From a virus (taxonomy: Duplodnaviria; Heunggongvirae; Uroviricota; Caudoviricetes): a DNA stretch of 35,219 nucleotides. Shown here piece by piece: positions 1,616 through 35,219 of the stretch. Where the stretch lies: the IMG/VR virus record IMGVR_UViG_2548876867_000017, positions 1-35,219 of that record. One strand, written 5' to 3'. The number at the start of each line of letters is the position of its first letter. The first letter of the stretch is position 1. The translations under genes were made by a program, and so were the position numbers. The notes beneath the pieces were generated by a model. It had not been told where the DNA came from. It was given only the letters and a program-made list of their open reading frames with translations, and ran no database searches.

Positions 1616-1651
1616 GCCCCTATCGTTATAATACACGGTAGGGGCGTTTTT
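1616..1651 (+). terminator. rho-independent terminator (loop contains TATAAT-like hexamer)
   Basis: GCCCCTA..TAGGGGC stem followed by GTTTTT after the 1354..1599 stop; loop TTATAATACA could double as a -10 element for the recombinase gene. Confidence 0.5.
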
Positions 1652-1664
1652 GTTTGGAAATGGT

Positions 1665-3344
1665 ATGAAAACTAAACTGTATTCGTATATTCGCTTCTCA
1701 TCTATGCGTCAGAATGATGGTTCGAGTTATGAACGGCAAATCAGGATGGCGAGAGAGGTTGCGGCAAAGTATGACCTTGAACTGGTAAATGATTATCAGG
1801 ATCTGGGTGTATCTGCGTTTAAGGGTGCTAACTCTAAAACAGGGGCGCTATCTCGTTTCCTTGATGCAATTGGTAGATCCGTTCCTGTTGGTAGCTGGCT
1901 ATTCATTGAAAACTTGGACCGTTTATCCCGTGCCGATATTGTCAGTGCGCAGGAGTTATTCCTTTCAATAATCCGTAGGGGGATAACCATTGTTACTGGC
2001 ATGGATAACAAGATCTACTCGCTGGATACTGTTACCGCTAACCCGATGGACCTGATGTTCTCCATCCTTTTATTCATCCGTGGTAATGAGGAAAGCCAGA
2101 CTAAGCGCAATCGTACTAACTCAAGCGCACTGATTAAGATTAAAGCCCATCAAGAAAATCCCCAGAATCCGGCAGTGGCAATCGAGGAAGTTGGAAAGAA
2201 TATGTGGTGGACTGATACCACTTCCGGTTATGTGCTGCCTCATCCGGTGTACTTCCCTGTTGTTCAGGAGATTGTGGAATTGCGGAAGAATGGACGTTCA
2301 ACCGCCGAAATACTGGATCACCTTAACGAGACTTATACACCGCCACCAGCGGTTAGCAACAAGAAGCATTCAAAATGGTCACGGGCAATGGTTGAAAGGT
2401 TGTTCCATACCCGCGCTTTGATTGGTATCAAGGAAGTCTCTGTAGATGGTGTTAATTATGAGTTAAAGGATTATTACCCTCGTGTTATTGATGATGCTAC
2501 GTTCTATCACCTTAAGAAAAATATTGGTGCTAGAGCATGGAACTTTGGAGACAAGGAAGAAGTTAAACCGATCCCCCTGCTTAGTGGTATTGGCCTATTG
2601 AAATGTGATCATTGCGGTTGCGCTATGGTTAAAGTGAAGGGAACGAACAAACGTTCTGACCAGTATCGTTATACATGTGATGCGACCCGTTCACGTAGAC
2701 TTGATTGTGAGCATCCAAACTGGAGTTTTCGAGGCGACCAATTAGAGAAAGCTGTATTGCAATTGCTGGCTGATAAAATCTGGATTGCTGAGGACAAGGC
2801 TAATCCGGTTCCGGCGTTGAAAGTACAGGTTGATGAAATATCACGCAAGATTGATAACCTGATTGCCCTTTCTGCTATGACAGGAGCAACGAAGGAGTTA
2901 GCCGATCAGATTACTACCCTCAATAGCGAGCGTGAAACACTCTACAATCAGATCAAGATGGCAGAAGAGGAAATGTATTCTGTGGACTCTCAAGGCTGGG
3001 AGAAGCTCGCAGAATTTGATTTAGAAGATGTTTATAACGAGGAACGACTAAAGGTCCGGTTTAAGATTAAGCAAGCTCTAAAGCGGATCGGGTGTAGCAG
3101 GATTGACAGAAACAAAAACTTGTTTGTACTGGAATACATCGATGGAAAAACCCAGAGAGTTGTAATAGAAAATTCAAGAGGAACGAGGAAAGGCCGGATC
3201 TTCATTGATTTGAAAACTATCAATGATAGGCAGATTCTGGAGAGCAACGGGCTTGTTCTGCATCCATGTTTAGACATGCTGACAGATAAGAACTGGAAAC
3301 CAGAAGAGGAAATACCAGGTCCATTACAGGAATTTGGAATTTAA
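1665..3344 (+). CDS. large serine recombinase (integrase/resolvase family)
   Basis: N-terminal catalytic motif YSYIRFSSMRQ with conserved Ser, DRLSR motif, Cys-rich zinc-ribbon segment (CDHCGC..CDATRSRRLDCEH), C-terminal coiled coil; start moved from TTG 1650 to ATG 1665. Confidence 0.85.
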   Translation: MKTKLYSYIRFSSMRQNDGSSYERQIRMAREVAAKYDLELVNDYQDLGVSAFKGANSKTGALSRFLDAIGRSVPVGSWLFIENLDRLSRADIVSAQELFLSIIRRGITIVTGMDNKIYSLDTVTANPMDLMFSILLFIRGNEESQTKRNRTNSSALIKIKAHQENPQNPAVAIEEVGKNMWWTDTTSGYVLPHPVYFPVVQEIVELRKNGRSTAEILDHLNETYTPPPAVSNKKHSKWSRAMVERLFHTRALIGIKEVSVDGVNYELKDYYPRVIDDATFYHLKKNIGARAWNFGDKEEVKPIPLLSGIGLLKCDHCGCAMVKVKGTNKRSDQYRYTCDATRSRRLDCEHPNWSFRGDQLEKAVLQLLADKIWIAEDKANPVPALKVQVDEISRKIDNLIALSAMTGATKELADQITTLNSERETLYNQIKMAEEEMYSVDSQGWEKLAEFDLEDVYNEERLKVRFKIKQALKRIGCSRIDRNKNLFVLEYIDGKTQRVVIENSRGTRKGRIFIDLKTINDRQILESNGLVLHPCLDMLTDKNWKPEEEIPGPLQEFGI

Positions 3345-17493: not shown

Positions 17494-17790
17494 TTAAAAC
17501 TCCATGAATTTAAAATATTCAATACCACCATCACCGCCGTGTCCACAGGTGACAGTACAGCCAGCAGGAACAAAGGCATTTATAGTAGATCCCCAATTAT
17601 TCCCACCACGACGACGAGCAACGGTCAAACCATCTACGTTAATCACACCATCAGCCCATCCACCGCCAGCATTATGACGCATGACAGCGACACCAGCGCG
17701 AGCAGTACCATAGCCGTTAGGAATATCAAATACATGCCATTTTAAAGCATCGATTTTAGTATTAATTTCACTACTTACCCAATATCCCAT
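17494..17790 (-). CDS. glycine-rich small protein, paralog 1
   Basis: 98 aa; VFDIPNGY motif, Gly-rich, C-terminal YFKF; RBS AAGGA. Confidence 0.55.
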   Translation of the reverse strand: MGYWVSSEINTKIDALKWHVFDIPNGYGTARAGVAVMRHNAGGGWADGVINVDGLTVARRRGGNNWGSTINAFVPAGCTVTCGHGGDGGIEYFKFMEF

Positions 17791-17828
17791 ATAAGAATCC
17801 TTAGCGGAGATTTCTCCCCGCTTTCCAA

Positions 17829-20800
17829 TTACCCTAATTTAGCTTCAATTGCAGCAAGACGTTCACGAAGAAGTTTATTTTCTTCGCTCATTTCTTGGAC
17901 CGCTTTAATTAAAAGCGCGTTCACTGCGGAGTTTGAAATTGTTAAAATTTCTTCTGGGTTATCAAGACCACCAATTTTTGCGGTTTTAACAGCTTCCGGT
18001 AATACCTCTTGTAAATCCTGTGCGATAATACCAATCTCATGACCTATAACTTCTCGGTCATTAAGAGATTTAACTTTATCGTAGGTTTTAACTTTGAGTT
18101 TATTTACCTTATCCACCGCATTTTCTTCGTAATCTTCAACATTAATTTTCAGACGACCATCGGAACGAATATAAACATCGTTAAAGTTACCATTACCAGG
18201 AGAATAGAAAGTACCATCATGATGGAACTCGAATACAGCTTGAGGATGACCAGCCGCTGGCGATGCCTCCGCAGACCCAACACGAATAATTGCTTGCCCC
18301 CAATTTTGAGGAACACGACGCATACCAAAATCGACGGCAGTTGTATACCCTTGATTGGTGATTAAACTTCTTCCTTTAATAATTGGATAATAGCTATCTG
18401 GTCCAACATAGCCATGATCGACGAATATTGGCGCTTCTAAGCCCCATTGATCACCCCAACCTCCAGATTGGCTAGCAGTCCAACGTTCACCATGAACATA
18501 GAATCGAACGTTATTGACATGGGTCATTTCGACGCCTTTTGGACTTAGCGCGATATCCCCCGCGTTTGTAATGTTTACAGCAGCATTAGTAGCATAACTA
18601 TAGAACGCTAATCCATTATCAGCACCACCTTTACCGATATACCAGTTGTTATTATCGGCACAAGTACCCAGCAAATATATAGACGAATCGCCACTTTCGG
18701 CATTCATGATGATTGCATCAGATCCGCGATTAACTTTCAGTTTACCAAAGAAGGAGTTTTTAATGGTATTATCGCCTAATCGTTCAAATTCAGCTAAAAA
18801 TCCTTTTGAGTCACGAAGACTTAAAACGTTATTTCGACCTGTATTGCTTGCCCCCCAATGGACAAGTTCCATATAGTCCATAGATTGACGAGAACCAGCT
18901 TTAAAGAAAAGGTTGTCTTCAAGACGGGTACTACCATCAATTCCCAAATGCAAACAACGAGCAGTTTCAGTGCCACCTAAATCTAATCCACCTTCGGCGA
19001 AATCATAACTGAATGGTCTACGACTATTCCACGGTCCAAAGGAATCACCGAGATCTGTGGTAAGAATATGGAAACCAACACCATCATTTCTAAAAATTAA
19101 GCCATAATTGCCACCTTTAACAGCCAAACGAGCATTTTCAGATAATGCAACTTCGCTATTCATTACGATTTTCTGGCCTTTACCGCCAGTAATATGCAAT
19201 TCACCGTTTTCGATCAAGTTTATCGAGTTTTGACCGTTGTCGTTCCACCAAATAAAATCTTTGGTTGTTCCATCACCAAAACCAAACCAACCATTACGAA
19301 CATCTTGTCCAGTGCGATAATCCATGAAATTAAAATGGCTTGATTCGTTTGGTCCTCGACGAATATCAATACCAGAATTTCCACCAACACCACCATCCAA
19401 TGTTAATTTCTTGACATGTAACCCGGATGTTACTGTCAGCAATAATTCCTGGTTTGTATCTTCGTATCCAGTAGCAAGACGATATGCGTTATCATCAACT
19501 GTCTCATGCCAGATTGTAGCTGGTGCACAACTACGGAAGCGACGCAACATCTTTTTAGCATTTGTCGGTTGTTCGTTTAAATGCTCAATATCATATTGGC
19601 CTTGATGATTGCCAGCAAAATTTAACGTCCCACGGTTGCTAAAGTTATTGAACGATGAAATGTTAAGAGCATCAAAAATTTCATCTGCAACAGGTTTTTC
19701 ACCACCCAGATATTCAGGAGTATCCAACAGGTTTAAAGAAACACCACCGGAAGAAACTTGATATTCTGCTAAAACAAATCCTGTATGTGCACCGTAGTAA
19801 GCGTAAAGATCGTAATTATCACCATCGGTAGGAATTGCACAAAAATGTTGTTCGTGATACCAGATGCTATAATAAGCATTGAATACAACACCTTTCGGGC
19901 TATTGTTGCCGCATCGAATCACCAGTTCGATAATATTGGCTTGTCCATTCTGTCCGACGTTATAACCGTTGCCACCAACTAAGCGGATCTTAGCACTACG
20001 ACCGTGTTGCTGTGGCAGTGTTAAACTACCGAGTTTAAACCAACCGCCCTCGATCCCAAAATTAAGCGTCTTCTGGAACAGTCGGTCAATTTCTGCTTTC
20101 GAATATGCGCCAATTTCAGCCGGAGTAGGTTTATCACCTTCGTGATACATGCGGTGAGAATATGACAAGTTACCCAATTCATCGTAGCCGTATGTTTTTA
20201 CAGTCGGAACAACGTTAGAACCATATGTAAAATCAAAACCGCGAGAATGATTTAGACCGCTAGGATGTGGCACATGCAAAGCTAATGCCAAATGACCATC
20301 CATATCATTAGTACGGAATGCACCAAAATAATCAAGGTTACGCGCACTTGGATCATCAAAATAGTTTGCGGTCTTAGACAGCAAATAGCCATCAGTGTAA
20401 GTGTTTACGTGCTTTTTGATGTACTTGCCATCAGCAGATCCATCGGCTGCATCAATACGGCTTTCTAAGCGTGCCAGTTCGGAATCAGTGTAAGACTTGT
20501 TATTGTCAACTTTGCTATGAATTGCTGTATTTTTGGCCTCAACATCACGGGTTAATGCTGCGACGTTATCCGCTGCCTCCTGCTTATTGGCTGCAATCAC
20601 ACCAGCAAGATGATTGTAAGTGTCGGTTAACTGATTTCCCGCATAGGTTTTATTTGCTGCGATAGTGCGGTCAGTTTCTGCCTTAATCAAATCAACCTTG
20701 TCATTAATTGCTTTGTGATTGCTTGCGATGGTTGCATCAGTACGGGATTTAATATCATCAACTTTTTTATTGATGCGGGTGTCCAGTTCCTGTGTTGCTA

Positions 20801-21239
20801 CAGCAGCCGCATTTTTATTAGCATTGATAGTATCCGACAATTCAGCTTTAACACCAGCAAGGTCGGAAGCAGCTTTATTTTTATTGGCATCGATTGTCGC
20901 GTCGGTTTCGCGTTTAATTACATCAACTTTATTGTTAATTTCTGCGTGATTTGCTGCGATAGTAGAATCAGTAGTTTGTTTAATTTCATCTACTTTAGCG
21001 TGAATATTGCGGTCATTTACTACAATTGTGCTATCCAGTTCTTTTTTATTAGCATCAACTTTAGATTCTAGTGCCGCGTGAGTTTCAGGAGAAACAGAGA
21101 TTTGAACTACTTCATGATCTCGGTCTTTGGTAAAAATAACATGGTCTTTAAGGTTGATTGCTACCTCACCGACCTGTAATTGTTCCGGCGTTGGTTTTTT
21201 GCCAGAAACATTAGTTCGTTTAAATTGGATTGATTGCAT
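17829..21239 (-). CDS. side tail fiber protein with C-terminal intramolecular chaperone (peptidase S74-like) domain
   Basis: 1136 aa; N-terminal periodic KVDxIKxxTDxTIxANK repeats; C-terminal about 110 aa (SDGRLKINVEDYEENAVDKV...LRERLAAIEAKLG) matches the auto-cleaving chaperone domain of endosialidase / T5 L-shaped fiber type; RBS GAGGTG. Confidence 0.85.
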   Translation of the reverse strand: MQSIQFKRTNVSGKKPTPEQLQVGEVAINLKDHVIFTKDRDHEVVQISVSPETHAALESKVDANKKELDSTIVVNDRNIHAKVDEIKQTTDSTIAANHAEINNKVDVIKRETDATIDANKNKAASDLAGVKAELSDTINANKNAAAVATQELDTRINKKVDDIKSRTDATIASNHKAINDKVDLIKAETDRTIAANKTYAGNQLTDTYNHLAGVIAANKQEAADNVAALTRDVEAKNTAIHSKVDNNKSYTDSELARLESRIDAADGSADGKYIKKHVNTYTDGYLLSKTANYFDDPSARNLDYFGAFRTNDMDGHLALALHVPHPSGLNHSRGFDFTYGSNVVPTVKTYGYDELGNLSYSHRMYHEGDKPTPAEIGAYSKAEIDRLFQKTLNFGIEGGWFKLGSLTLPQQHGRSAKIRLVGGNGYNVGQNGQANIIELVIRCGNNSPKGVVFNAYYSIWYHEQHFCAIPTDGDNYDLYAYYGAHTGFVLAEYQVSSGGVSLNLLDTPEYLGGEKPVADEIFDALNISSFNNFSNRGTLNFAGNHQGQYDIEHLNEQPTNAKKMLRRFRSCAPATIWHETVDDNAYRLATGYEDTNQELLLTVTSGLHVKKLTLDGGVGGNSGIDIRRGPNESSHFNFMDYRTGQDVRNGWFGFGDGTTKDFIWWNDNGQNSINLIENGELHITGGKGQKIVMNSEVALSENARLAVKGGNYGLIFRNDGVGFHILTTDLGDSFGPWNSRRPFSYDFAEGGLDLGGTETARCLHLGIDGSTRLEDNLFFKAGSRQSMDYMELVHWGASNTGRNNVLSLRDSKGFLAEFERLGDNTIKNSFFGKLKVNRGSDAIIMNAESGDSSIYLLGTCADNNNWYIGKGGADNGLAFYSYATNAAVNITNAGDIALSPKGVEMTHVNNVRFYVHGERWTASQSGGWGDQWGLEAPIFVDHGYVGPDSYYPIIKGRSLITNQGYTTAVDFGMRRVPQNWGQAIIRVGSAEASPAAGHPQAVFEFHHDGTFYSPGNGNFNDVYIRSDGRLKINVEDYEENAVDKVNKLKVKTYDKVKSLNDREVIGHEIGIIAQDLQEVLPEAVKTAKIGGLDNPEEILTISNSAVNALLIKAVQEMSEENKLLRERLAAIEAKLG
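17832..18164 (-). other. predicted self-cleaving intramolecular chaperone domain of the tail fiber
   Basis: Begins at the conserved Ser of RSDGRLK (Ser codon at 18162-18164); expected to be removed after fiber trimerisation. Confidence 0.6.
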
Positions 21240-22155: not shown

Positions 22156-22578
22156 TTAAAAACGCGCTACATAAGAAAATTTAAGGCTAAGTGTCCCAAC
22201 GATACCCCCATCACTAGAATCATCGTCATAATCGGTATTAGAAGCTACTGGAGTGATATCTGAAATAGAGAAGCCCAAATCTTTAAAACGTGGGTTATCC
22301 GGCTGAATCTGGATTATCTGGCAAATACCCTCATGAATTTTTGTTTCATGAATCTGAGAATATAATTGCATTTCGATAACGCATTCAGCTTGCATTGCAT
22401 TACCACCACGGACCCTATTGTAAGTCTCATTCATTCCGGTAATCCAACAAACCACGTCATCACTAAAGCCTTGCTGAGTTTGTTCTACGTTTAAAGCCAG
22501 ACCTAAATCTTGTTCGATAATATCCTGCAAGGCGCGTTTGATTTTCAGTCTAGGCATATTATTAACGGTAGCGAGCAT
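22156..22578 (-). CDS. hypothetical head-tail joining protein
   Basis: Start moved to ATG 22578 with RBS AGGGGG 7 nt upstream (ORF-track start 22659 overlaps upstream gene by 98 nt). Confidence 0.45.
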   Translation of the reverse strand: MLATVNNMPRLKIKRALQDIIEQDLGLALNVEQTQQGFSDDVVCWITGMNETYNRVRGGNAMQAECVIEMQLYSQIHETKIHEGICQIIQIQPDNPRFKDLGFSISDITPVASNTDYDDDSSDGGIVGTLSLKFSYVARF

Positions 22579-25095: not shown

Positions 25096-26607
25096 TTAGG
25101 GATCGGTTTGAGAAGGGTTATCCTTGCTCTCACCATTAACGATAATATTTAGTGCGCTCTTTTCGGCTTGAATCTCTGAGAATACTTTTTCAGGATCATC
25201 ACCACGTTCCAAAATAACGGCAGTACGTGATTTAAGTCCTTTATCAATTAAAGCAATCTCGGCGTTTACGTCTTTAATTGGATCGACGGATTCAAAACGC
25301 GGACGAATAATAGTAGTGTTATCGATAATATGCGGAATTGCAGTAATACGAATCGGAACAATACCACGCGCGGAATAATGGCGTAGATATGCTTCGAAAA
25401 TTGGCAATACCACTGTTTCAATTAATTTGTTTTGCAGTGCTTTAACGCGCGTTCTTTGAAGTAATTCGCCGTAGCGTGCAGCGCTGTAATTTATTTGGCT
25501 AGTATCGCCAGTTAAGCCCTGATTGAACACGCCAAGACCCATTGCTATGCTAGTGAACATACCAGCGTTAAATGAATTGAAATCATCGCCGCTTTGCGTG
25601 GATTGAATACTCTTGATCGTTGCCCCTTCCGGCAATTCCTGAATAGTACCCGGCGCGAAATCGTGAATAACTTCCGGCGCTTGATATTGTTCATCATCTT
25701 CACCAGTATCAAAATCGTCACCAGAATCTTTCGGACGCTCGATGAACGCCATGCTACTAGCTGAAATTCGTTTCTGGATCAGGACCGCTTCGCGGAATGC
25801 GTCTTGATGTGCGATATCCTTAATCACTGGCAGGAAGTCGGTCACGCCGCGCAAACTTTCGGCGCACAAGGGCTGATAGTAATGACACACTTGAGAAGCA
25901 TCTACGCGATAGTTATCACCTGTGTAGGTTTGAGTCAGTAGGTTGATTTTACGAAACCAGTATGCTACGGGCTTCATTGTTTCCACGTCATACTCCACAC
26001 CTTGATATATCGCACGTTCTTTGCTTACTTCACGGTTTAGCGACCAGTCGCACTTATCAGCAGACAGGATGGAAACATTTAACTCATTGTTTTCTTTGGT
26101 TAAAACGATGAAGCACTCACCACCCATAACGCGCTCACGTTCAGCCATCACCAGCAGTTCACGGAAGTTAAAACGACCATTGCGGGAGAAGCGTTTAGCA
26201 TTCTGCGCCCACTTCCAGAAAGCATTCTCGATCTGCTTATTCAGTGCGGTATCAAGTTTGCCATTTGATTTAACGATTGATGGCTTCGGATCTAGGCCAG
26301 TGCCGACCACCATATCGGTGATGTATTGCGTGTAGCGACTGCCTACGGAAGTGTTTAAGGCCAGAGTACGACCCTGATCATAAAGGCGCTTACCATTCGA
26401 TTTGAGAGCCTTATTGAAGGTTCCTGTAATGGTATCTTGTTGAAGCGATCCATCAATGCGATCACCAACCAGTCCTAAACTACGAGTCGCCAGAGATTTC
26501 TGGTATTTTTCTATAGATTTGTCGATAAAGATTTTTTGTTGTTGCTGGCGGTGATTAGTTTTAACTGGAGTTTCTACCGCCTTATTGCGTCGAAAAAGAT
26601 TAAACAT
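25096..26607 (-). CDS. portal protein (lambda gpB-like)
   Basis: 503 aa between terminase and capsid genes; C-terminal region recalls lambda-family portals; RBS AAGGGG. Confidence 0.8.
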   Translation of the reverse strand: MFNLFRRNKAVETPVKTNHRQQQQKIFIDKSIEKYQKSLATRSLGLVGDRIDGSLQQDTITGTFNKALKSNGKRLYDQGRTLALNTSVGSRYTQYITDMVVGTGLDPKPSIVKSNGKLDTALNKQIENAFWKWAQNAKRFSRNGRFNFRELLVMAERERVMGGECFIVLTKENNELNVSILSADKCDWSLNREVSKERAIYQGVEYDVETMKPVAYWFRKINLLTQTYTGDNYRVDASQVCHYYQPLCAESLRGVTDFLPVIKDIAHQDAFREAVLIQKRISASSMAFIERPKDSGDDFDTGEDDEQYQAPEVIHDFAPGTIQELPEGATIKSIQSTQSGDDFNSFNAGMFTSIAMGLGVFNQGLTGDTSQINYSAARYGELLQRTRVKALQNKLIETVVLPIFEAYLRHYSARGIVPIRITAIPHIIDNTTIIRPRFESVDPIKDVNAEIALIDKGLKSRTAVILERGDDPEKVFSEIQAEKSALNIIVNGESKDNPSQTDP

Positions 26608-26617
26608 GATTTACCCC

Positions 26618-27112
26618 TTATCGCGTAAGACGTAATTTGATATTTTTAATCGGGCTAATTCCCTGTTTACGTCGTTCGGCTTGAATTAATTTTGATAACT
26701 GACGTTCATAATCGACTTTTAGAGTCTGGAGAACAGCCAATGACTCATAGGCGAAAGTATTCCCTTTCACGGTCATTTGAGATAATGCGGCTTCGTCCCC
26801 AGATAAACGAGAAAAGATGACTTGTTCCAAAATGGCGATAGTTTCCCGCAGATATTCTTTTTTGGATTGTTTGGCGAATACTGGCAAAACAGTTAATTCC
26901 TGCATTGATACCAGTTCATCATCCAAAGTTATTACGATGGTATATTTACCTTCGGCAAAATCTAAGGTTTTAATCTCATGATTAGCCGGAGTATCATCAA
27001 CCTGATAAATGATACCTTTACTATTTCCTACCTGAATTGTTACACCCTCTTCATTCGCCAGCGTGATTTTTTCGCCTTTCCGAATTACTAAGGGAATTAG
27101 TTCTAAACTCAT
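26618..27112 (-). CDS. hypothetical head-associated protein
   Basis: 164 aa between large terminase and portal; RBS AAGGGGT. Confidence 0.5.
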   Translation of the reverse strand: MSLELIPLVIRKGEKITLANEEGVTIQVGNSKGIIYQVDDTPANHEIKTLDFAEGKYTIVITLDDELVSMQELTVLPVFAKQSKKEYLRETIAILEQVIFSRLSGDEAALSQMTVKGNTFAYESLAVLQTLKVDYERQLSKLIQAERRKQGISPIKNIKLRLTR

Positions 27113-27184: not shown

Positions 27185-29089
27185 TTAGAACGATGTTACC
27201 CAGCTACGGCCTCTATTTGGGCGTCTGACGATGTTTTGACGTTGTGGTCGTGTGATTGGCTTAGTTTCTTCTATTTGCTCGTTAGATTGCGATTTAGGAG
27301 CTTTTACGGGTTCTTCGACAACACGGTTTAAGCTGTCTTTCATTGCAATGAGTTTATCCCATGACATTTTTGAAAGGACGTAGCGAGAAGCCGCTGTAGC
27401 ATACACGGCGCAGTCGAGCGCCTCGTTCCTAACGCCTGGGTTCTTTACCCATCTCACGCCAGTAGTAGTACGCTTGACAGATTCACTTAAAAGCTGATCG
27501 AGATAATCATCAGGAACGGTGTCTGATATTTCTAAGGCAATATGAGGATTATCTTTCAGGTTCCTAGCCAACATTTCACGAAATGCAGTTTTACCCACGT
27601 TAACACCCAACATAAGCAATTCATGACCACCTGTGCGGGTAGGTTTAACCGGAATGATCGGAGCGTTACCAGCAGAACTACCTTTGATAGCGTGTAAGTT
27701 CTTCCACTTGCCGCAAATACGGTATCCAGCTTGAGTGAATCGACCGTTCGATGTATCAAGGAAGCTGGCGAGCATAGGAACACGATCACCCGATACAGTA
27801 GTAAATTTGGTTTTATGGAAGTTGATTAATCTATCCCATACAGGTGATTCATATCGTTCACAGTTATGATCGTAAAAGCTGCGGTGATCCAGAATATAAA
27901 TCTTATCCTTTGCCACGCCCATGATCGTAGTTTCTGCGCGATCTAATTGCTGGTCAGTACCCGCACACAAGAAAATCACGTCATCAGGGATATTCTCGAT
28001 AGAAACATCTGTTTTGAGTTGTTCCAGTTCATTTGCTTCTACTGCCGTGTCCTGATCGTCGTATACCTTGCCTAACACGGTGTTAAAAAAGGATTGTAAA
28101 TCAAAGGATTGCCACGCATGACTAAAATCAACCACACAAGCGCGGATCGTACTGAAAGGTGAATACAGACGACTGATCCAGAATCCTGCTACTTCACTTT
28201 CACGGGTTGCTCTCCACTCGCCTTGCGCTACTGCCCTGATTCGTTCCCCTTCTGTCCATGCGTTCTTACAGTGGGGGCAAATATAACGAGCGGTATCAGG
28301 ATCGGGTAAGTTCTTACCATCAATGTTACGCCATTCAAATTGAACGTTTTCCCACTCGATCACCTGGTGTTCCCCGCAATGAGGACACGGAACAAAAAAC
28401 ATACGCATATCACTTGATAACCATTGCTGGTTAATGATTCCCAGCTTATTGGTTGGGGTACTAGAAACAATCAATCGAGCTTCATCACCAAAGGTAGTTA
28501 AACGGTTTGCAGTTAGTGCCACCGGACAACCTTCTTCGGTGATTGTTGCTGCGTCGCATTCGTCTACAATCCCTAACTTGGCAGTACGCCCACGCAAACT
28601 TGAAGGACTGGTCAAAGAAACCATGTAAAGGAAATGGTTTGTTTTTAGCTGAATCTGGTTATTGTTGTTTACCGCATTACGATCATTCTTATCTGTTACC
28701 ACTTCCTGTAATGCCGGACATGCTTCAATAGAAGGACGGATCTTAGTATTCAAGTACATAGCCACTTCTTTAGCGGTACTTTGCCCGATAATGATATTGC
28801 ACGGATCGTTTGCCATCTGGTTAAACATGATCCCTGACATGATGGTCGTCTTTCCGATCTGCGCACTCGTACAAAAAACGTACTTCTTTTTCTTCTCAAG
28901 GAAAGGAGCATCAATCATGCCTTTCTGAAATGACAGTAATTTAACTTTATCCCCAGCACGAGGACCATCGACTAGCGTTAGATTCGCTTCGCACCATTCA
29001 GAAGGAAGGAGCTTAGGCGGTGGCGTAATATATTTGGCTGCATTTTTAAGAATCTTTTTTAATTTTGCCTTATTAGAAATCAGTTTCAT
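27185..29089 (-). CDS. terminase large subunit (lambda gpA-like)
   Basis: 634 aa; motifs [28 protein letters not shown] and [14 protein letters not shown] correspond to lambda gpA segments as I recall them; Walker A-like AQIGKT; RBS GAGGG. Confidence 0.85.
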
Positions 29090-29176
29090 GTAATTACCCT
29101 CATTACGAAATATGAAGGTATTTATTAAGTTGTTGATTTTTTGATAAATACGGGTATTAAGATTTAAGGGGGTTGT

Positions 29177-29782
29177 ATGCTAATTGATCAGCAACAAAGA
29201 GATGAATTAGAATTAGCCTTTTCTTGTTGTACCGATCATGAATATCGTTTGCCAGTTAAGCACCATCACAAGAAGACTGATTACACAACATCTGGCTTTA
29301 GTCGTGAGGAAGCTAAACAGATTTTAATCGAGTTGTATCGCGATCATGGGTATACCGATATTCATAACTTCTTTAAGAAGCATCGCACATCACAGACAGA
29401 GTTTCAGCGAGTCCGTGAGTGGTTTGATTTTGACATTAAGCGATTCTATCGAGTAGATGACGGTCCTATCTATCGGTTGCAGTGGAAGCCGATCCGAGAA
29501 GTGCTTAAACAGAAGAGATTGAATCATGCCATTACACGCTATCGTAATGTGGCTTTCAAGAAAGGCTATGGTGATACAAGGGAATTGTTTGTAGAACTCG
29601 CTAACGTGCGATATAGCCATTATTACAGGAATCCTAAAGAGTTCTTCGAAGTGCTGCGCAAGGTTGATATAAGTCGGGGTACATACTATTCACGGTTGAA
29701 GAAGTACGGGATTAAGGCAGAGTTTTTTATGTCAGTTGACGATGGAGAACTTTTTCCGATAAAATGTAAGTCCTCTAAATAA
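29177..29782 (+). CDS. protein with C-terminal resolvase/transposase-type HTH motif (putative transcription regulator)
   Basis: 201 aa; C-terminal [16 protein letters not shown] fits the HTH_7/HTH_23 pattern; RBS AAGGGGG; divergent from the terminase operon. Confidence 0.5.
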
Positions 29783-29816
29783 AGGTGAACATTCACTTTA
29801 ATTTGGAGAAATGACT

Positions 29817-30044
29817 ATGACTACTAAAGCTACTCGCGGTCGTCCTGCCCGTTTTAACGCTGAACAGATGGCTGATATTGCCTACGCTTATTATACAGCG
29901 GATCGTGGTAAGGAAGCGAAAGAACAGATTCTTAGTGAACATGGGATCTCAATCGCCCAATTCTATAAGAATATGAAGAAGTTAGACATTAAATTCTATG
30001 TTCAGATCGGTGATGGTCAGATCGTAGAAGCAACAGGTTTTTGA
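29817..30044 (+). CDS. small HTH protein (paralog family with 33212..33391)
   Basis: Start taken at second ATG (better SD spacing); RGRPARF..ADIAYAYY..ISIAQFYKNMKKLDIKFYVQI parallels the 33212 product. Confidence 0.5.
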   Translation: MTTKATRGRPARFNAEQMADIAYAYYTADRGKEAKEQILSEHGISIAQFYKNMKKLDIKFYVQIGDGQIVEATGF

Positions 30045-30052
30045 TTCTCTTT

Positions 30053-30076
30053 GCCACTCTTCGGAGTGGCTTTTTT
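30053..30076 (+). terminator. rho-independent terminator
   Basis: GCCACTC-TTCG-GAGTGGC hairpin followed by TTTTTT after stop of 29817..30044. Confidence 0.7.
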
Positions 30077-30091
30077 GTATCTGTAGGTATG

Positions 30092-30115
30092 AAAAAGCCC
30101 CACACTAGGCGAGGC
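30092..30115 (-). terminator. intrinsic terminator for the leftward Rha-like operon
   Basis: Hairpin GCCTCGCC..GTGGGGC on minus strand followed by UUUUU, just after the 30125 stop. Confidence 0.5.
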
Positions 30116-30124
30116 TAAAAATTA

Positions 30125-30955
30125 TTACAGTCCGAAGACTTCCAGTGATCCAACATTCTGACGGAGACGTTCAGCCGCTTTATTTTGAATCAGAATAGTG
30201 TTGTTCGGCTTAGGAAGATTCAGAGTTGCTTTTTGTTCTTCTTCCAAAACACCCAATTCAACCAGCACCGGAAGCACATCAACAGTAAACTCAAGTTGGT
30301 AGTGAGCATTCATGCGGCAGAAAGAGAGAGAAGAATCATTAGCAACATACCCACACGGCTTGTTATTTTCATCATAGACGCGCTCGATGTATCCAGCAGT
30401 ACGTAAGGCCGTCAGTGCTTCTTTAACCTTCGTAGCGCCCTTTTTAGCGCCTAACAGACGGGTCATTGAATGGCTATCTACAGACTTACGAACATGAAGT
30501 TCAATCAGTTGTTTGTTTTCGCGAGTTTTCTTTAACGCCAGTTCGATCCAGTCTGTTTCTTCAAAGTGTTCATATGGATTAACCGGAACATTAGCTTTCC
30601 CTTCTTTCATCAAACGCCATTCTTTAGCAATTTTGAAGCGAAGCGGTGCATCGTATCCCATAACCAGAGTATTACAGAGATCTTCGTCCAGTTCATACAT
30701 CGGGCGAGATTGATTATTCTTATCAAAATATGAAGATTCTACAAAATACCCCAGCGCAAAATTGCGCCCGGCTAATTCGCTTCCTTTTTCAAGAGAATCA
30801 ATCATGCGACGAAAATCACGCATAACATCCTTATGATTCTTTCCGGTCAATTCAGCAATCTGACGGGTAGACATGGTCAGCGGTTTGGTGTTATCAACAA
30901 CCAGAGACACGGAAGCAGTTTTAACAGCAGTATTCATAGTAGTAACAGTATTCAT
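30125..30955 (-). CDS. Rha-family / antirepressor-like regulatory protein
   Basis: N-terminal TMSTRQIAELTGKNHKDVMRDFRRMID fits the Rha/ORF6N DNA-binding pattern; 276 aa; RBS AAGGGG. Confidence 0.55.
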   Translation of the reverse strand: MNTVTTMNTAVKTASVSLVVDNTKPLTMSTRQIAELTGKNHKDVMRDFRRMIDSLEKGSELAGRNFALGYFVESSYFDKNNQSRPMYELDEDLCNTLVMGYDAPLRFKIAKEWRLMKEGKANVPVNPYEHFEETDWIELALKKTRENKQLIELHVRKSVDSHSMTRLLGAKKGATKVKEALTALRTAGYIERVYDENNKPCGYVANDSSLSFCRMNAHYQLEFTVDVLPVLVELGVLEEEQKATLNLPKPNNTILIQNKAAERLRQNVGSLEVFGL

Positions 30956-31044: not shown

Positions 31045-31377
31045 TTACCAATCGATTTCTACTTGGTCTTCTTCATAATAAGGAATCGCATATTCATAAC
31101 GCCAATTTTCGATGATTTCACGTTCTTCATTAGTAAGAAGGTGATTGTTAACTGGAGTCGCATTGTGATTACCAGCTTCGAATTGCTCGCGAACTTCCAG
31201 CATTGCATGAATACCAGTTAAGGTCATCAGATCAAACGGAACATGCATACTACGGGAGATAGTTTCACGGGATACGCCCCAATCATTTTCTACATGGCTA
31301 GGGGTTACAGAAACGGTTTTGCCGGAGATTTTAACAGTCCAGTCATACAGGGATTTAGTGATGGTAAATTCTTTCAT
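31045..31377 (-). CDS. hypothetical protein
   Basis: 110 aa; RBS AAGAGGA; first gene after the leftward promoter at about 31434-31462. Confidence 0.55.
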   Translation of the reverse strand: MKEFTITKSLYDWTVKISGKTVSVTPSHVENDWGVSRETISRSMHVPFDLMTLTGIHAMLEVREQFEAGNHNATPVNNHLLTNEEREIIENWRYEYAIPYYEEDQVEIDW

Positions 31378-31497: not shown

Positions 31498-31947
31498 TTA
31501 CAGCATATCTAAGCCTTCATCGTAACCGTAGAAGCCACCGTGAGAAGAGAAAGCGATTGGTGCGTAGTCTTCGTCTTCCTCATCTTGTTCTGGGGCTTCC
31601 TGAGCGGTTTCTTTACCGTAATTAAACATTGCTTCATCCAGTTCACGAAGAGTCAAGAAGCTACCCAGGTCAATGTCACCGGAACGGACTTGAAACGGCA
31701 GATCATCACGAACAATAATTGCTGGAATATCGTTGTATTGAAGACGACCCTCATCAGTAAAACAGTCGATGATCACAGTAGGACGACCATTTCGTTTTAA
31801 AGCGTAGAAAGCAGTTGAGTAGTTGGAGTCTTCGGAATGACGAATGATGTTATAACCACGATGAGCGAAAACTTCTAGCATATGGAAGTTACCATAGTTT
31901 TCAGAGTCCAGACCCAGAAGTACGAAAGGAGTTTTAGTATTGATCAT
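31498..31947 (-). CDS. hypothetical protein with acidic C-terminal region
   Basis: Start moved to ATG 31947 (MINTKTPF) with RBS AGAGGA; conserved upstream box shared with gene 3418..4416. Confidence 0.55.
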   Translation of the reverse strand: MINTKTPFVLLGLDSENYGNFHMLEVFAHRGYNIIRHSEDSNYSTAFYALKRNGRPTVIIDCFTDEGRLQYNDIPAIIVRDDLPFQVRSGDIDLGSFLTLRELDEAMFNYGKETAQEAPEQDEEDEDYAPIAFSSHGGFYGYDEGLDML

Positions 31948-32524
31948 AGTGGTATCCTCTAAAAGAAAGTGAATCAAGTAAGTTCACTATTATTTATAAA
32001 GAGAAAATTCTTGTTATTATGAAAGGTGATTGTATTCAGTCGGGCAAAGCCCTCCTTCATGATTTGATTAAATCATCATCAAAACGAAGAAGTATCTTTA
32101 GAATATAAGAATCTTTCTTTTGGAGAAATAATAATCAGGAAGCAATTTAGCAACCGAAGGTTGCAATCCCGAAGGGATACCAATACCTTTCTAGAAAGTG
32201 ATTGTTACTCACTTCGTTCGTTTACTAGAATCAGTTAGTAACTAGTATTAAATCCCTTTCTAAGAAAATCCTTTCAAAAGCGAGTGAACGCCGTAGGCGT
32301 GAACGTGAGCGAAGCGAACTATCCAATCCCTTTCGAATCCTGCTTGCAGGTCTTAGAAGGTGTTGATGGGCGCTTCGCGCACGGCTACGCCGTATTCTTT
32401 TTGCGAGATCTTTCTTGAACGTAGTGAGAGAAAACGAGCAAAAAGGAGAACGTTAGTTCGAATTTTATATTCTATGGTCTGTGGGGTGAAATGTCTTTCA
32501 AGATCATACGCTTATGAGATTGAA

Positions 32525-32648
32525 GTGTAGGGTTAGTGTAGGTGTGTAGGTTTCATAGTGTAGGTTTGAGGGTGTTATAGTGTAGGTTTACTGACTAGTG
32601 TAGTGTAGGCCAATCCCTTTAAAGCGTAGGTTTGTAGTGTAGGTTTTT
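32525..32648. repeat. iteron-like array of about 8 copies of (A)GTGTAGGTTT
   Basis: Direct repeats at about 32525, 32536, 32544, 32558, 32580, 32603, 32626, 32637, spaced 8-23 bp, in an ORF-free region and followed by an AT-rich tract. Confidence 0.6.
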
Positions 32649-32751
32649 CATCAAAAATTTTGATAGAAAATTCTTGTATATTATTTAACCGGAAAATCAC
32701 CAAAAATCGCTGTAAATGTATGATTTAAAAAGAATTATCAAAAGGTCGCCG

Positions 32752-32760
32752 TGCTATAAT
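32752..32760 (+). promoter_or_regulatory. extended -10 promoter element (TGcTATAAT)
   Basis: TGCTATAAT at 32752-32760 in AT-rich region upstream of rightward genes; weak -35. Confidence 0.4.
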
Positions 32761-32840
32761 AGGTTATAAAGGTTGATAATCGTTATCCGCCATTTTCACA
32801 CAAAAATTTTGATAGTCATTTCTCGCTTAGGTCAAGTGCA

Positions 32841-32869
32841 TTGACAACTGTCAAGGATTATTTTATACT
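32841..32869 (+). promoter_or_regulatory. near-consensus sigma70 promoter for rightward genes
   Basis: TTGACA (32841-32846), 17 bp spacer, TATACT (32864-32869); -35 is part of palindrome TTGACA-AC-TGTCAA. Confidence 0.6.
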
Positions 32870-33211
32870 TTTTCTCATTGGTAGGGGTTGAAATTTTCGA
32901 AACAATCCCCATATTGATGATAAACAAGATTTTTTCGTGTATAAATACATGCATGAAATGATTGTTCACTTCTGAAAATCCCCTGATTCACTGTTAACAC
33001 ACACAGCACTGGTTAAACACACAGTGCTTTTTCGATTGAATAATGTACGAATTGATTAATTATTAATCTTCTCTTTAGCAATTCGTGCTCCCACTGATCA
33101 GATATACAGTGGTTTTGCAGGGTTTTCTGAAATGACTTTTATAAATAGAAGTATCGAGGGCGAAAAGCTCTTTTTATTGTCCTTATTAATCCACATTTGA
33201 GGAATCTACTT

Positions 33212-33391
33212 ATGGCTAGACCTGTTAAGTTTACTCGTGAAATGATTGTTGATATTGCTAAACGCTTTTATGGCGATACTGAACGAGGCGGCGAGAATTT
33301 CTTTAAGAAGGAAGGAATTGATAGAAGCGGATTCTATAAGCTAATGAAGAAATACGAAATTCAGATAAAGATTAACGTTCAAGTTTGTTAA
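33212..33391 (+). CDS. small HTH protein (paralog of 29817..30044)
   Basis: Start at ATG 33212 with RBS GAGGAA; ARPVKF..VDIAKRFYG..IDRSGFYKLMKKYEIQIKINVQ parallels the 29817 product. Confidence 0.5.
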   Translation: MARPVKFTREMIVDIAKRFYGDTERGGENFFKKEGIDRSGFYKLMKKYEIQIKINVQVC

Positions 33392-33507: not shown

Positions 33508-34503
33508 ATGAAAAATTCTAAGCGCATCACCTTCAACCTGTTTATTAAATCCAACGGCAAACTGAACATTACCGTCATGGAAGGTAAAGCAAGCAAACAA
33601 GACAAATCCTTTGAAGTAGTATCCGGTAAGACTCTGACCGAAATGCGTCAGAATGCTGGCATCAAAGACGGTGCTGAATGGCAGATCACTAACCGTTTCG
33701 ACAAACGTCACGTTAAACCTACACTGGTAGAAGGTGAATCCGTTTATTGCTTCGCTCGTGCTGTTAAAGCCGATGAAACTTACTATCTCGCTGTTGTTAA
33801 AACTGCTTCCGGCTTCCGTGCTGTAATGCATCACAAGAGCAAGCGTAACGAATACGGCGTAGAGACCCAGGAAGTCGCAAAACGCTTCCGTACTGTTGCT
33901 ACCGAATCCACTGTAAAGGATGTTTCTGGTACTGTTAACACCGTTAAAGGCGGTTCCTTCTACAACCACGCATTACAGGTTACTTCCTCCTTCTTCTGCA
34001 AAAAAGAAGCACAGAAAGAAGTTGCTCCGGTAGTAGTTGAAGAAGTTAAAGAAGAAGTTGCAGTGGTTGAATCTTCCGAAGTTGAAGCACTGAAAGCACG
34101 CATTGCTGAACTGGAAGCTGAAAACGCATCTCTGAAAGCTGAACTGGCAGCACAGGAAACCACTTTCGAAGTAGCAGCGGTTGAAGTTGAAGCAGTTGAA
34201 GAAAAATCCATTGATGAAGAACTGGAAGAACTCCTTAACTATCGCTGGGGTAACGGTGAAGAAGTAGAACAAGAAGTTGCTCCGGTAGTTGTTCCGGTTG
34301 AAGTTGAAGAAGAATCCGCACCAGTTACCAACTTTGAAACACTGCGCAATAACTTTATGGCTAAATTCAAAACTAGCTGGGAAGATACCGAAGAAGAACA
34401 AGAAGAGATTGATGTAAACGAAGACGAGATCCGCGAAGCACACATGGCACTTCATGACGCTATCTACGACACCAACTACAGCGCCTACGCATACGCAGCT
34501 TAA
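33508..34503 (+). CDS. highly expressed acidic protein with repeat-rich coiled-coil C-terminal half
   Basis: 331 aa; RBS AGGAG; strong bias to highly-expressed E. coli-type codons; basic N-terminal domain, then repeated EVAPVVV(E/P)VE(E) units and leucine-zipper-like EALKARIAELEAENASLKAEL. Confidence 0.6.
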   Translation: MKNSKRITFNLFIKSNGKLNITVMEGKASKQDKSFEVVSGKTLTEMRQNAGIKDGAEWQITNRFDKRHVKPTLVEGESVYCFARAVKADETYYLAVVKTASGFRAVMHHKSKRNEYGVETQEVAKRFRTVATESTVKDVSGTVNTVKGGSFYNHALQVTSSFFCKKEAQKEVAPVVVEEVKEEVAVVESSEVEALKARIAELEAENASLKAELAAQETTFEVAAVEVEAVEEKSIDEELEELLNYRWGNGEEVEQEVAPVVVPVEVEEESAPVTNFETLRNNFMAKFKTSWEDTEEEQEEIDVNEDEIREAHMALHDAIYDTNYSAYAYAA

Positions 34504-34518
34504 TAGAGGGGTGAATCT

Positions 34519-34761
34519 ATGATGAATCAAAACAAAGAATTTCTGGGTAATCTGATGTTAGAAATTACCAAAATGAAAGAAAGAATGGTAGCGATGGAAT
34601 CAGAGATTAAAACTCTTAAAGCTGATAATAAGGCGTTGAGAAAGTCCTTAAAGCTGATTGATGAGACTAATGCGGTTATGATGGATCATGTATTCCCTGA
34701 GTGGCGAAATGAAACTAAACCTACACAACATAAGAAACTTACACTTCGAATTGTTGCATAA
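34519..34761 (+). CDS. small coiled-coil protein
   Basis: 80 aa; RBS GAGGGG; heptad-like pattern. Confidence 0.5.
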   Translation: MMNQNKEFLGNLMLEITKMKERMVAMESEIKTLKADNKALRKSLKLIDETNAVMMDHVFPEWRNETKPTQHKKLTLRIVA

Positions 34762-34766
34762 AAAAA

Positions 34767-34784
34767 GGGACTCCGAAGAGTCCC
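34767..34784. terminator. hairpin terminator (orientation ambiguous)
   Basis: GGGACTC-CGAA-GAGTCCC perfect hairpin just after the 34761 stop; A-run upstream, partly T-rich downstream. Confidence 0.5.
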
Positions 34785-35045: not shown

Positions 35046-35219
35046 TTATTTAGTATCCTTTTTACAGCAACTAAAAAGAATAAACAAAAAGAAGCATACC
35101 CAGCCGTAAGGCGTACCGATTAGAAATTTGAAAAACACCACCAGCGATATAAAAATCAATTTAATGCCAGCGACGATAGTCAAAAACAGCAGAGTAGCAA
35201 AGTAGACAAAAAGATCCAT
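35046..35219 (-). CDS. small hydrophobic membrane protein (possibly truncated at window edge)
   Basis: Minus-strand ATG at 35219; translation MDLFVYFATLLFLTIVAGIKLIFISLVVFFKFLIGTPYGWVCFFLFILFSCCKKDTK has two hydrophobic helices; below ORF-track cutoff. Confidence 0.3.
   Translation of the reverse strand: MDLFVYFATLLFLTIVAGIKLIFISLVVFFKFLIGTPYGWVCFFLFILFSCCKKDTK

Follow-up and report, generated by a model that had tools for sequence, protein, structure and literature searches.

The large terminase and its neighbours

About 33 kb of a ~35-kb E. coli prophage are covered by the DNA analysed here (the window, i.e. the whole stretch of 35,219 nt). The element is inserted inside the antitoxin gene hicB and its integrase is a large serine recombinase (1650..3344). 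It is present in 63 of 5426 complete E. coli genomes, at 65 places, all of them chromosomal, and a search of a plasmid collection did not return it. Relatives of the prophage are also found in Salmonella and Proteus. No isolated phage is close to it, the best match of its large terminase (TerL) being at 44.5% to the record of phage DCP80, and literature searches found no description of it.

TerL opens a leftward morphogenesis operon in which it is followed by a gene in the gpW position, and then by the portal, capsid, tail and lysis genes (Table 1). The protein has both the ATPase and the endonuclease domain of gpA, as expected of a lambda-type large subunit, with Pfam scores far above the cut-offs (GpA_ATPase PF05876, 2.7e-55; GpA_nuclease PF20454, 4.7e-46) and a match to phrog_15 at 4e-133. 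Precomputed Pfam hits on homologues identify the 668-aa ORF downstream of the portal as a protease-capsid fusion.

Table 1. Features discussed in the text. Positions refer to the window, except in the last two lines, which refer to the relatives L115 and L022.
Feature	Position	Strand	Remarks
Portal, lambda family	25096..26607	-	Pfam Phage_portal_2, 1e-63
p164, 164 aa, gpW position (head completion), between TerL and portal	26618..27112	-	phrog_5774 'head-tail joining', 4.5e-7
TerL, lambda gpA type, 634 aa, ATG start	27185..29089	-	Pfam GpA_ATPase, GpA_nuclease; phrog_15
TerL-p201 intergenic spacer, 87 bp, non-coding	29090..29176		Conserved in E. coli, Salmonella and partly Proteus relatives
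p201, 201 aa, divergent from TerL	29177..29782	+	AF2 model, internal repeat
p77, 77 aa, one domain copy, N-terminal RGRP arm	29811..30044	+	BLAST against p64, 1.5e-8; domain alignment
Convergent terminator-like hairpins, after p77 (+) and after Rha (-)	30053-30070 (+); 30116-30096 (-)	+/-	Span 30053..30116
Rha-family regulator	30125..30955	-	Pfam Phage_pRha, 1.1e-17
p110, 110 aa, accessory	31045..31377	-	Missing from L022, L027, L023 and L026
p149/p159, 149 aa (159 aa from an upstream TTG), acidic C-terminal tail, conserved early gene	31498..31947	-	38-75% identical in relatives
Control region, 1.2 kb, non-coding	31978..33196		Eight direct RYGTAGG repeats, then an AT-rich stretch
p64, third protein with the p201/p77 domain, first gene of the rightward early operon	33212..33391	+	Domain alignment
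p331, coiled-coil	33508..34503	+	Type matches repeat type
57-aa ORF	35046..35219	-	Start is the last base of the window
TerS in L115	8703..9257	-	WP_024233631.1
TerS in L022	41925..42479	-	WP_028132402.1

The first-pass annotation of this DNA had remarked that its lambda-A-like TerL has no recognisable small terminase (TerS) gene beside it. This was correct, since no protein of the window matches any TerS family in Pfam, PHROGs or NCBIfam; a Nu1-type HMM run on the six-frame translation of the window gave a best E-value of 2.8. The gene order it had given upstream of TerL also holds, with a divergent gene (p201) followed by a Rha-like gene and by two genes of 110 and 149 aa to which it assigned no function. 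It had called the divergent neighbour an HTH gene. The divergent 201-aa gene is there, but the HTH label comes solely from an AlphaFold model of medium confidence (pLDDT 70.6), in which an N-terminal helix precedes two tandem ~65-aa repeats made of three helices and a hairpin (winged-helix-like); no HTH family matches the protein.

Several neighbours were considered as TerS and rejected. The same annotation had envisaged that TerS might be one of the listed ORFs; when p110, p159 and p201 were compared by hhalign with the TerS profile of the lineage, the probabilities were 0.44%, 0.20% and 0.15%, i.e. below 1% for each, and none of the three matches any family in Pfam, PHROGs or NCBIfam. Besides, p110 is missing from many relatives. 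The accessory gene Rha precedes TerL directly in one relative (L056), and is ruled out by its absence from the Proteus relative and from some of the E. coli relatives. As for p164, TerL is followed by a protein of comparable size in Persinger (gp3), ECOO78 (gp54), DCP80 and all sister prophages. It holds the gpW position and, since a separate TerS co-exists with it in Persinger and ECOO78, it is not a substitute for TerS.

The 87-bp spacer between TerL and p201 is presumably a divergent regulatory region, an assignment of promoters that is itself presumed: sigma-70 promoters read by hand were not reproduced by a consensus scan, which found no site within 29090..29176. No cos-like motif occurs in the spacer either. 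Further upstream, the two convergent hairpins suggest that transcription of the Rha operon does not just continue into TerL. We also noticed two near-identical terminator hairpins in opposite orientation (30056-30076 and 34761-34781; ACTCTTCGGAGTGGCTTTTTT and its complement, 90% complementary). Hairpins of this ACTCTTCGGAGTGGCTTTTTT type end both the p201-p77 unit and the p64-p331-p80 unit.

The small terminase gene of the relatives

Every relative that reaches past the right end of the window has a gene of 177-186 aa on the TerL strand, 6146-7075 nt upstream of the TerL start codon. That TerS might be encoded outside the window, another suggestion of the first-pass annotation, is thus borne out in all of these relatives. 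To place the gene relative to the window we used prophages that are 98.7-98.9% identical to its last 820 nt. In these near-identical prophages TerS begins 256 nt past position 35219, spans about +256 to +810 nt and lies on the same strand as the 57-aa ORF. In strain 14EC017, for example, the last 820 nt are 98.9% identical and TerS is found at +256 to +810. The final base of the window is equivalent to 41668 in L022 and to 8447 in L115, and its right end falls ~2.2 kb short of attR. Since the window both begins and ends at a start codon, its limits look as if a prophage predictor had set them by gene calls. They leave out TerS and an LprI-family gene that precede attR. The first-pass annotation had named a canonical, co-oriented TerS just beyond the window as a finding that would overturn its remark; this is what the relatives have, but at 6-7 kb from TerL and not adjacent to it.

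The assignment of this gene was made with a custom Nu1 HMM, built from the Nu1-like TerS genes that directly precede TerL in distant relatives. It retrieved the 177-186-aa ORF in L022, L023, L024, L026 and L027 with E-values from 1e-23 to 1e-34. The copies of L022, L027, L023 and L026 match phrog_57 ('terminase small subunit') over their full length (E from 1.5e-11 to 1.3e-22), and the family TerS aligns end to end with those of L076, L083, L088, ECOO78 and Persinger, through the HTH, the central helices and the acidic tail. In Pfam its best match, to Phage_Nu1, has E = 0.004 and falls below the cut-off; tblastn against 50,697 phage records returned nothing. The functional call is therefore based on PHROGs and on the custom profile. 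RefSeq names the gene 'hypothetical protein'. A TerS gene is hence found in all relatives examined, by Nu1-type homology, position and strand, and from these relatives we infer that the genome of the window carries it too. The apparent absence of TerS is an effect of the window boundary and of weak family models, and the unconventional packaging recognition that had been envisaged need not be invoked.

The flanking DNA of this particular genome lies outside the window, so that one might argue that this copy of the prophage lost TerS and is defective for packaging. We regard this as extremely unlikely. TerS and its upstream DNA were found in 63 of the 5426 E. coli genomes, at 65 places, the same counts as for the prophage itself, and all E. 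coli genomes with the prophage also have the TerS segment. The last 820 nt of the window match 16 genomes over at least 80% of their length, the 12 listed being 96.0-98.9% identical over all of it, and both of the two flanks that were read continue into TerS.

Another reading, which we also consider very unlikely, makes the Nu1-like gene near attR a relic or a regulator of the excisionase type, and has TerL cut and package DNA without a small subunit. The gene adjoins the attachment end, far from TerL, its product does not reach the Pfam cut-off, and the Proteus copy weakly matches an excisionase/regulator PHROG (2.8e-5). Yet such a match is expected for a MerR/Xis-like N-terminal fold, and the similarity to TerS is full-length, extending beyond the HTH to the central helix and the acidic tail. 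All seven family loci listed have an intact ORF, and the N-terminal segment of TerL is common to relatives with an adjacent TerS. Moreover, the integrase of the prophage is a serine recombinase, and the directionality factors of such enzymes are not known to be related to Xis.

The most plausible reading, to which we give high confidence, is that of a conventional lambda-type terminase, with a Nu1-like TerS and a gpA-like TerL, whose genes are no longer adjacent and whose TerS gene lies just outside the window.

Gene order, origin and early regulators

A scan of IMG/VR with the TerL alignment revealed a gradient of relatives; the same scan of GTDB genomes gave only four distant loci. Where TerL identity is at most 43%, a co-oriented TerS of 155-182 aa overlaps TerL, and L076, the one representative of this overlapping type that we tested, matches phrog_57 at 6e-16. 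At 48-54% identity, the place beside TerL is taken by a divergent gene for an unrelated HTH protein, by a gene of the HNH or endonuclease VII type, or by Rha. In the sister clade (48-52%) a TerS of 171-202 aa lies on the TerL strand 4885-5399 nt upstream, with the early module in between, and all relatives with at least 48% TerL identity have an early/replication module between TerS and TerL. The plan of the sister clade is otherwise the same, including a p64-like gene and a non-coding gap, which indicates that the split between TerS and TerL predates the divergence of the two clades. Thus, in neither the family nor the sister clade is TerS immediately upstream of TerL and co-transcribed with it, and the adjacency of the two genes is a convention of gene order, not a mechanistic requirement.

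In the direction of TerL, the order in the family is as follows: a candidate cos site, TerS, a possible 57-aa ORF, terminators (the hairpins downstream of TerS are terminator-like), p80, p331 and p64 in reverse orientation, the 1.2-kb control region with its repeats, p159, the optional p110 and Rha, a terminator, p77 and p201 in reverse orientation, and TerL. It is this early/replication module, from p80 to p201, that places TerS 6.1-7.1 kb upstream of TerL.

Two observations concern the more distant loci. Four sister prophages have, upstream of TerL and co-oriented with it, a gene of the HNH_3 or T4 endonuclease VII-like type (L061 5377-5883, L066 5421-5954, L064 5351-5806, L070 4755-5216), which in the first three is the immediate neighbour. 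These genes could be homing endonucleases or HNH packaging accessories. In DCP80 (PQ671644.1; L001/L028), a 'complete genome' of 141 kb, a module that runs from TerL to the tail and is related to that of the prophage stands together with T4-like early genes, and rIIA is present as two inverted copies. The record appears to be a chimeric T4-like assembly, and we left it out of the gene-order evidence.

The repeats of the control region start between 32525 and 32637 (array 32510-32650), their fullest form being AGTGTAGGTTT. At the same place relatives have GTGTAGG, CAGGGGCAA or CTAGGGAT repeats, the latter two always beside a different, unrelated protein of ~310-335 aa. The repeat type follows the p331-type protein in every locus where both are seen, independently of TerL, and no similarity is detectable between the initiator types. 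Because the repeats change with the p331-type protein and not with TerL, we take them for an origin-initiator module and not for a packaging site. To judge from these sequences, the control region is a probable replication origin and p331 a probable repeat-binding replication initiator. The pairs of repeat and p331-type protein look like exchangeable origin-initiator cassettes. We had considered p331 and the repeat array as a TerS with its cos or pac site; this is ruled out, as both pair freely with TerL allele A. The AT-rich stretch that follows the repeats, as in replication origins, also speaks against the repeats being a packaging site.

Outside the array, the control region holds a non-coding segment of 75-78 nt (32063-32140), ~81% identical to unannotated intergenic DNA of RB49-group T4-like phages; in RB49 the match is at 97689-97763, between ORF165c and ORF164c. 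It may belong to the mobile promoter/stem-loop cassettes that have been described in that group. There is also a pair of GC-rich inverted repeats (32296-32316 and 32371-32391; 21 nt, 81% complementary, 54 nt apart), which is kept in relatives with different origin repeats.

The module also encodes an unusual family of small proteins. Four copies of one helix-rich domain of ~60-65 aa are found in the prophage, two in tandem in p201 (29282-29476 and 29558-29764), one in p77 (29811-30044) and one in p64 (33212-33391), with the consensus RPxxFTRE...Y...GIs...FYK.lKKy.I. The domain matches nothing in Pfam, nothing among PDB sequences in a profile search and nothing in phage genomes, and Foldseek searches of p201 against PDB and BFVD gave nothing below E = 0.4. 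A deep profile search of 1.84 billion representative proteins found only ~8 clear homologues; the remaining hits, in which long proteins match over several separate stretches, appear to be spurious. One weak match to the domain is a 47-aa ORF within the T4-like portion of DCP80 (L028 17089-17232).

Since p201, p77 and p64 have a small winged-helix-like domain in common and shuffle independently of TerL, they are more likely to be transcription regulators than packaging proteins. In fact, the alleles of p201, p77, p64 and p159 combine freely with both TerL alleles. The model of p201 suggests that it is probably a DNA-binding regulator.

This bears on a further alternative, in which p201, perhaps with p77, took the place of Nu1 in the terminase as the subunit that recognises DNA. 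The gene always adjoins TerL in the E. coli, Salmonella and Proteus members of the family, its product is predicted to bind DNA, and the sister clade also has a divergent HTH gene beside TerL. We nevertheless find such a replacement highly improbable. The HTH protein of the sister clade is unrelated to p201, which itself lacks sequence, profile or fold similarity to any TerS, and whose alleles, as said, are not tied to those of TerL. In L056, weak homologues of p201 (26-29% identity) are found in the early operon with p64 and the initiator, while Rha adjoins TerL. Finally, every relative has a genuine gene of the Nu1 type.

One might also speculate that the split between TerS and TerL is functional: with the replication and early module in between, and TerS as a separate unit next to cos and attP, the two subunits could be expressed on different schedules, and p201, which is divergent from TerL throughout the family, could be a new type of late-operon or packaging regulator, made of a domain that has hardly any relatives. 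This seems to us unlikely.

Packaging and known terminase systems

If the prophage has a conventional Nu1-gpA type terminase with separated genes, TerS would be transcribed as a separate unit, beside the attR end of the prophage. It would bind a cos site in a GC-rich block ~70-210 nt upstream of its own start and, by analogy with Nu1 and gpA, deliver TerL to it. The acidic C-terminal tail of TerS may contact TerL at its basic N-terminal segment; relatives retain this segment of TerL whether their TerS is adjacent or displaced.

Variation within the family may bear on this contact. There are two TerL alleles, ~57-58% identical, whose first 14 residues are identical and whose C-terminal tails (the last ~45 residues) are nearly so, the rest not being shared. 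Prophages that differ in their TerL allele (58% identity) have TerS proteins with 96% identity. Together these patterns are compatible with a conserved contact between TerS and TerL; they may equally reflect break points of recombination. The TerL alleles swap between near-identical flanking genes, with p164 and portal 91-94% identical between the window and L027, L024 and L023.

A GC-rich block, in a genome of otherwise ~40% GC, lies within the ~360 bp upstream of TerS and is conserved from E. coli to Salmonella. This area carries a GGGAGTTTTCGG block. In 19 of 26 loci, with all three clades represented, the motif GTTT(T)CG-N1-4-C[GC] precedes the start of TerS by 68-209 nt, compared with a background of 2.5% of 330-nt windows. 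In the whole window the motif occurs once, within the integrase gene. Its GTTTTCG core resembles the 'CGCGGGTTTTCGC' next to lambda cosN. The conserved block is thus a candidate cos site, a lead and not a demonstration. The ends of contigs in public assemblies were also considered as physical genome ends and were uninformative: they lie at att or in the repeat-rich non-coding region and have no common point.

With lambda (gpNu1 and gpA) the prophage family has in common the gpA ATPase and nuclease domains of TerL, the layout of TerS (N-terminal HTH, central helical region, acidic C-terminus), and a gene in the gpW position and a lambda-family portal after TerL. It differs in that lambda has Nu1 immediately before A, whereas in the prophage the origin and early genes come between TerS and TerL, which lie at a distance of 6-7 kb and belong to different transcription units. 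The identity of the family TerS to characterised Nu1 proteins is also too low for the Pfam threshold. The Pseudomonas phage Persinger, the Escherichia phage vB_EcoM_ECOO78 and the uncultivated relatives L076-L114 have a homologous TerS, TerL proteins 25-43% identical to that of the prophage, and the same head order of TerL, a ~180-aa protein and portal; in the records of the two phages a long capsid gene follows the portal. Unlike in the prophage, their TerS (155-182 aa) overlaps the start of TerL. In Persinger and ECOO78, the nearest characterised relatives (~30% TerL identity), it has 173-174 aa; that of ECOO78 passes the Pfam Phage_Nu1 cut-off (2.3e-11) and that of Persinger matches below it.

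Terminase genes that are not adjacent have precedents in phage P2, where M and P lie in divergent operons, and in the cluster A mycobacteriophages. These have other terminase families and other layouts, whereas the genes of the prophage are co-oriented with the replication module between them. The split is thus a gene order within a known system, and the separation of TerS from TerL by the origin and early genes is a conserved and unusual one.

These results call for some caution in annotation, as a TerS may seem to be missing when a predicted boundary falls ~2 kb short and the Nu1 homologue is too divergent for Pfam and RefSeq. They matter for tools that use the adjacency of TerS and TerL to find genome ends or to orient phage genomes. 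They also provide a usable TerS annotation for this prophage lineage in E. coli, Salmonella and Proteus, and a candidate cos site.

Two minor observations concern the structural genes. ARAGORN calls a tRNA-Lys of 91 nt at 22301-22391 (+), antisense to a structural-gene ORF; it is probably a false positive, since no Rfam family matches anywhere in the window. In and around the tail-fibre gene (1136 aa, 17829-21239), the region 17524-20377 has up to 94.5% DNA identity to the genes that virulent T4-like phages of E. coli (KFS-EC, MIZ4) have for the distal subunit of the long tail fibre, which points to a recent exchange between the temperate prophage and T4-like phages.
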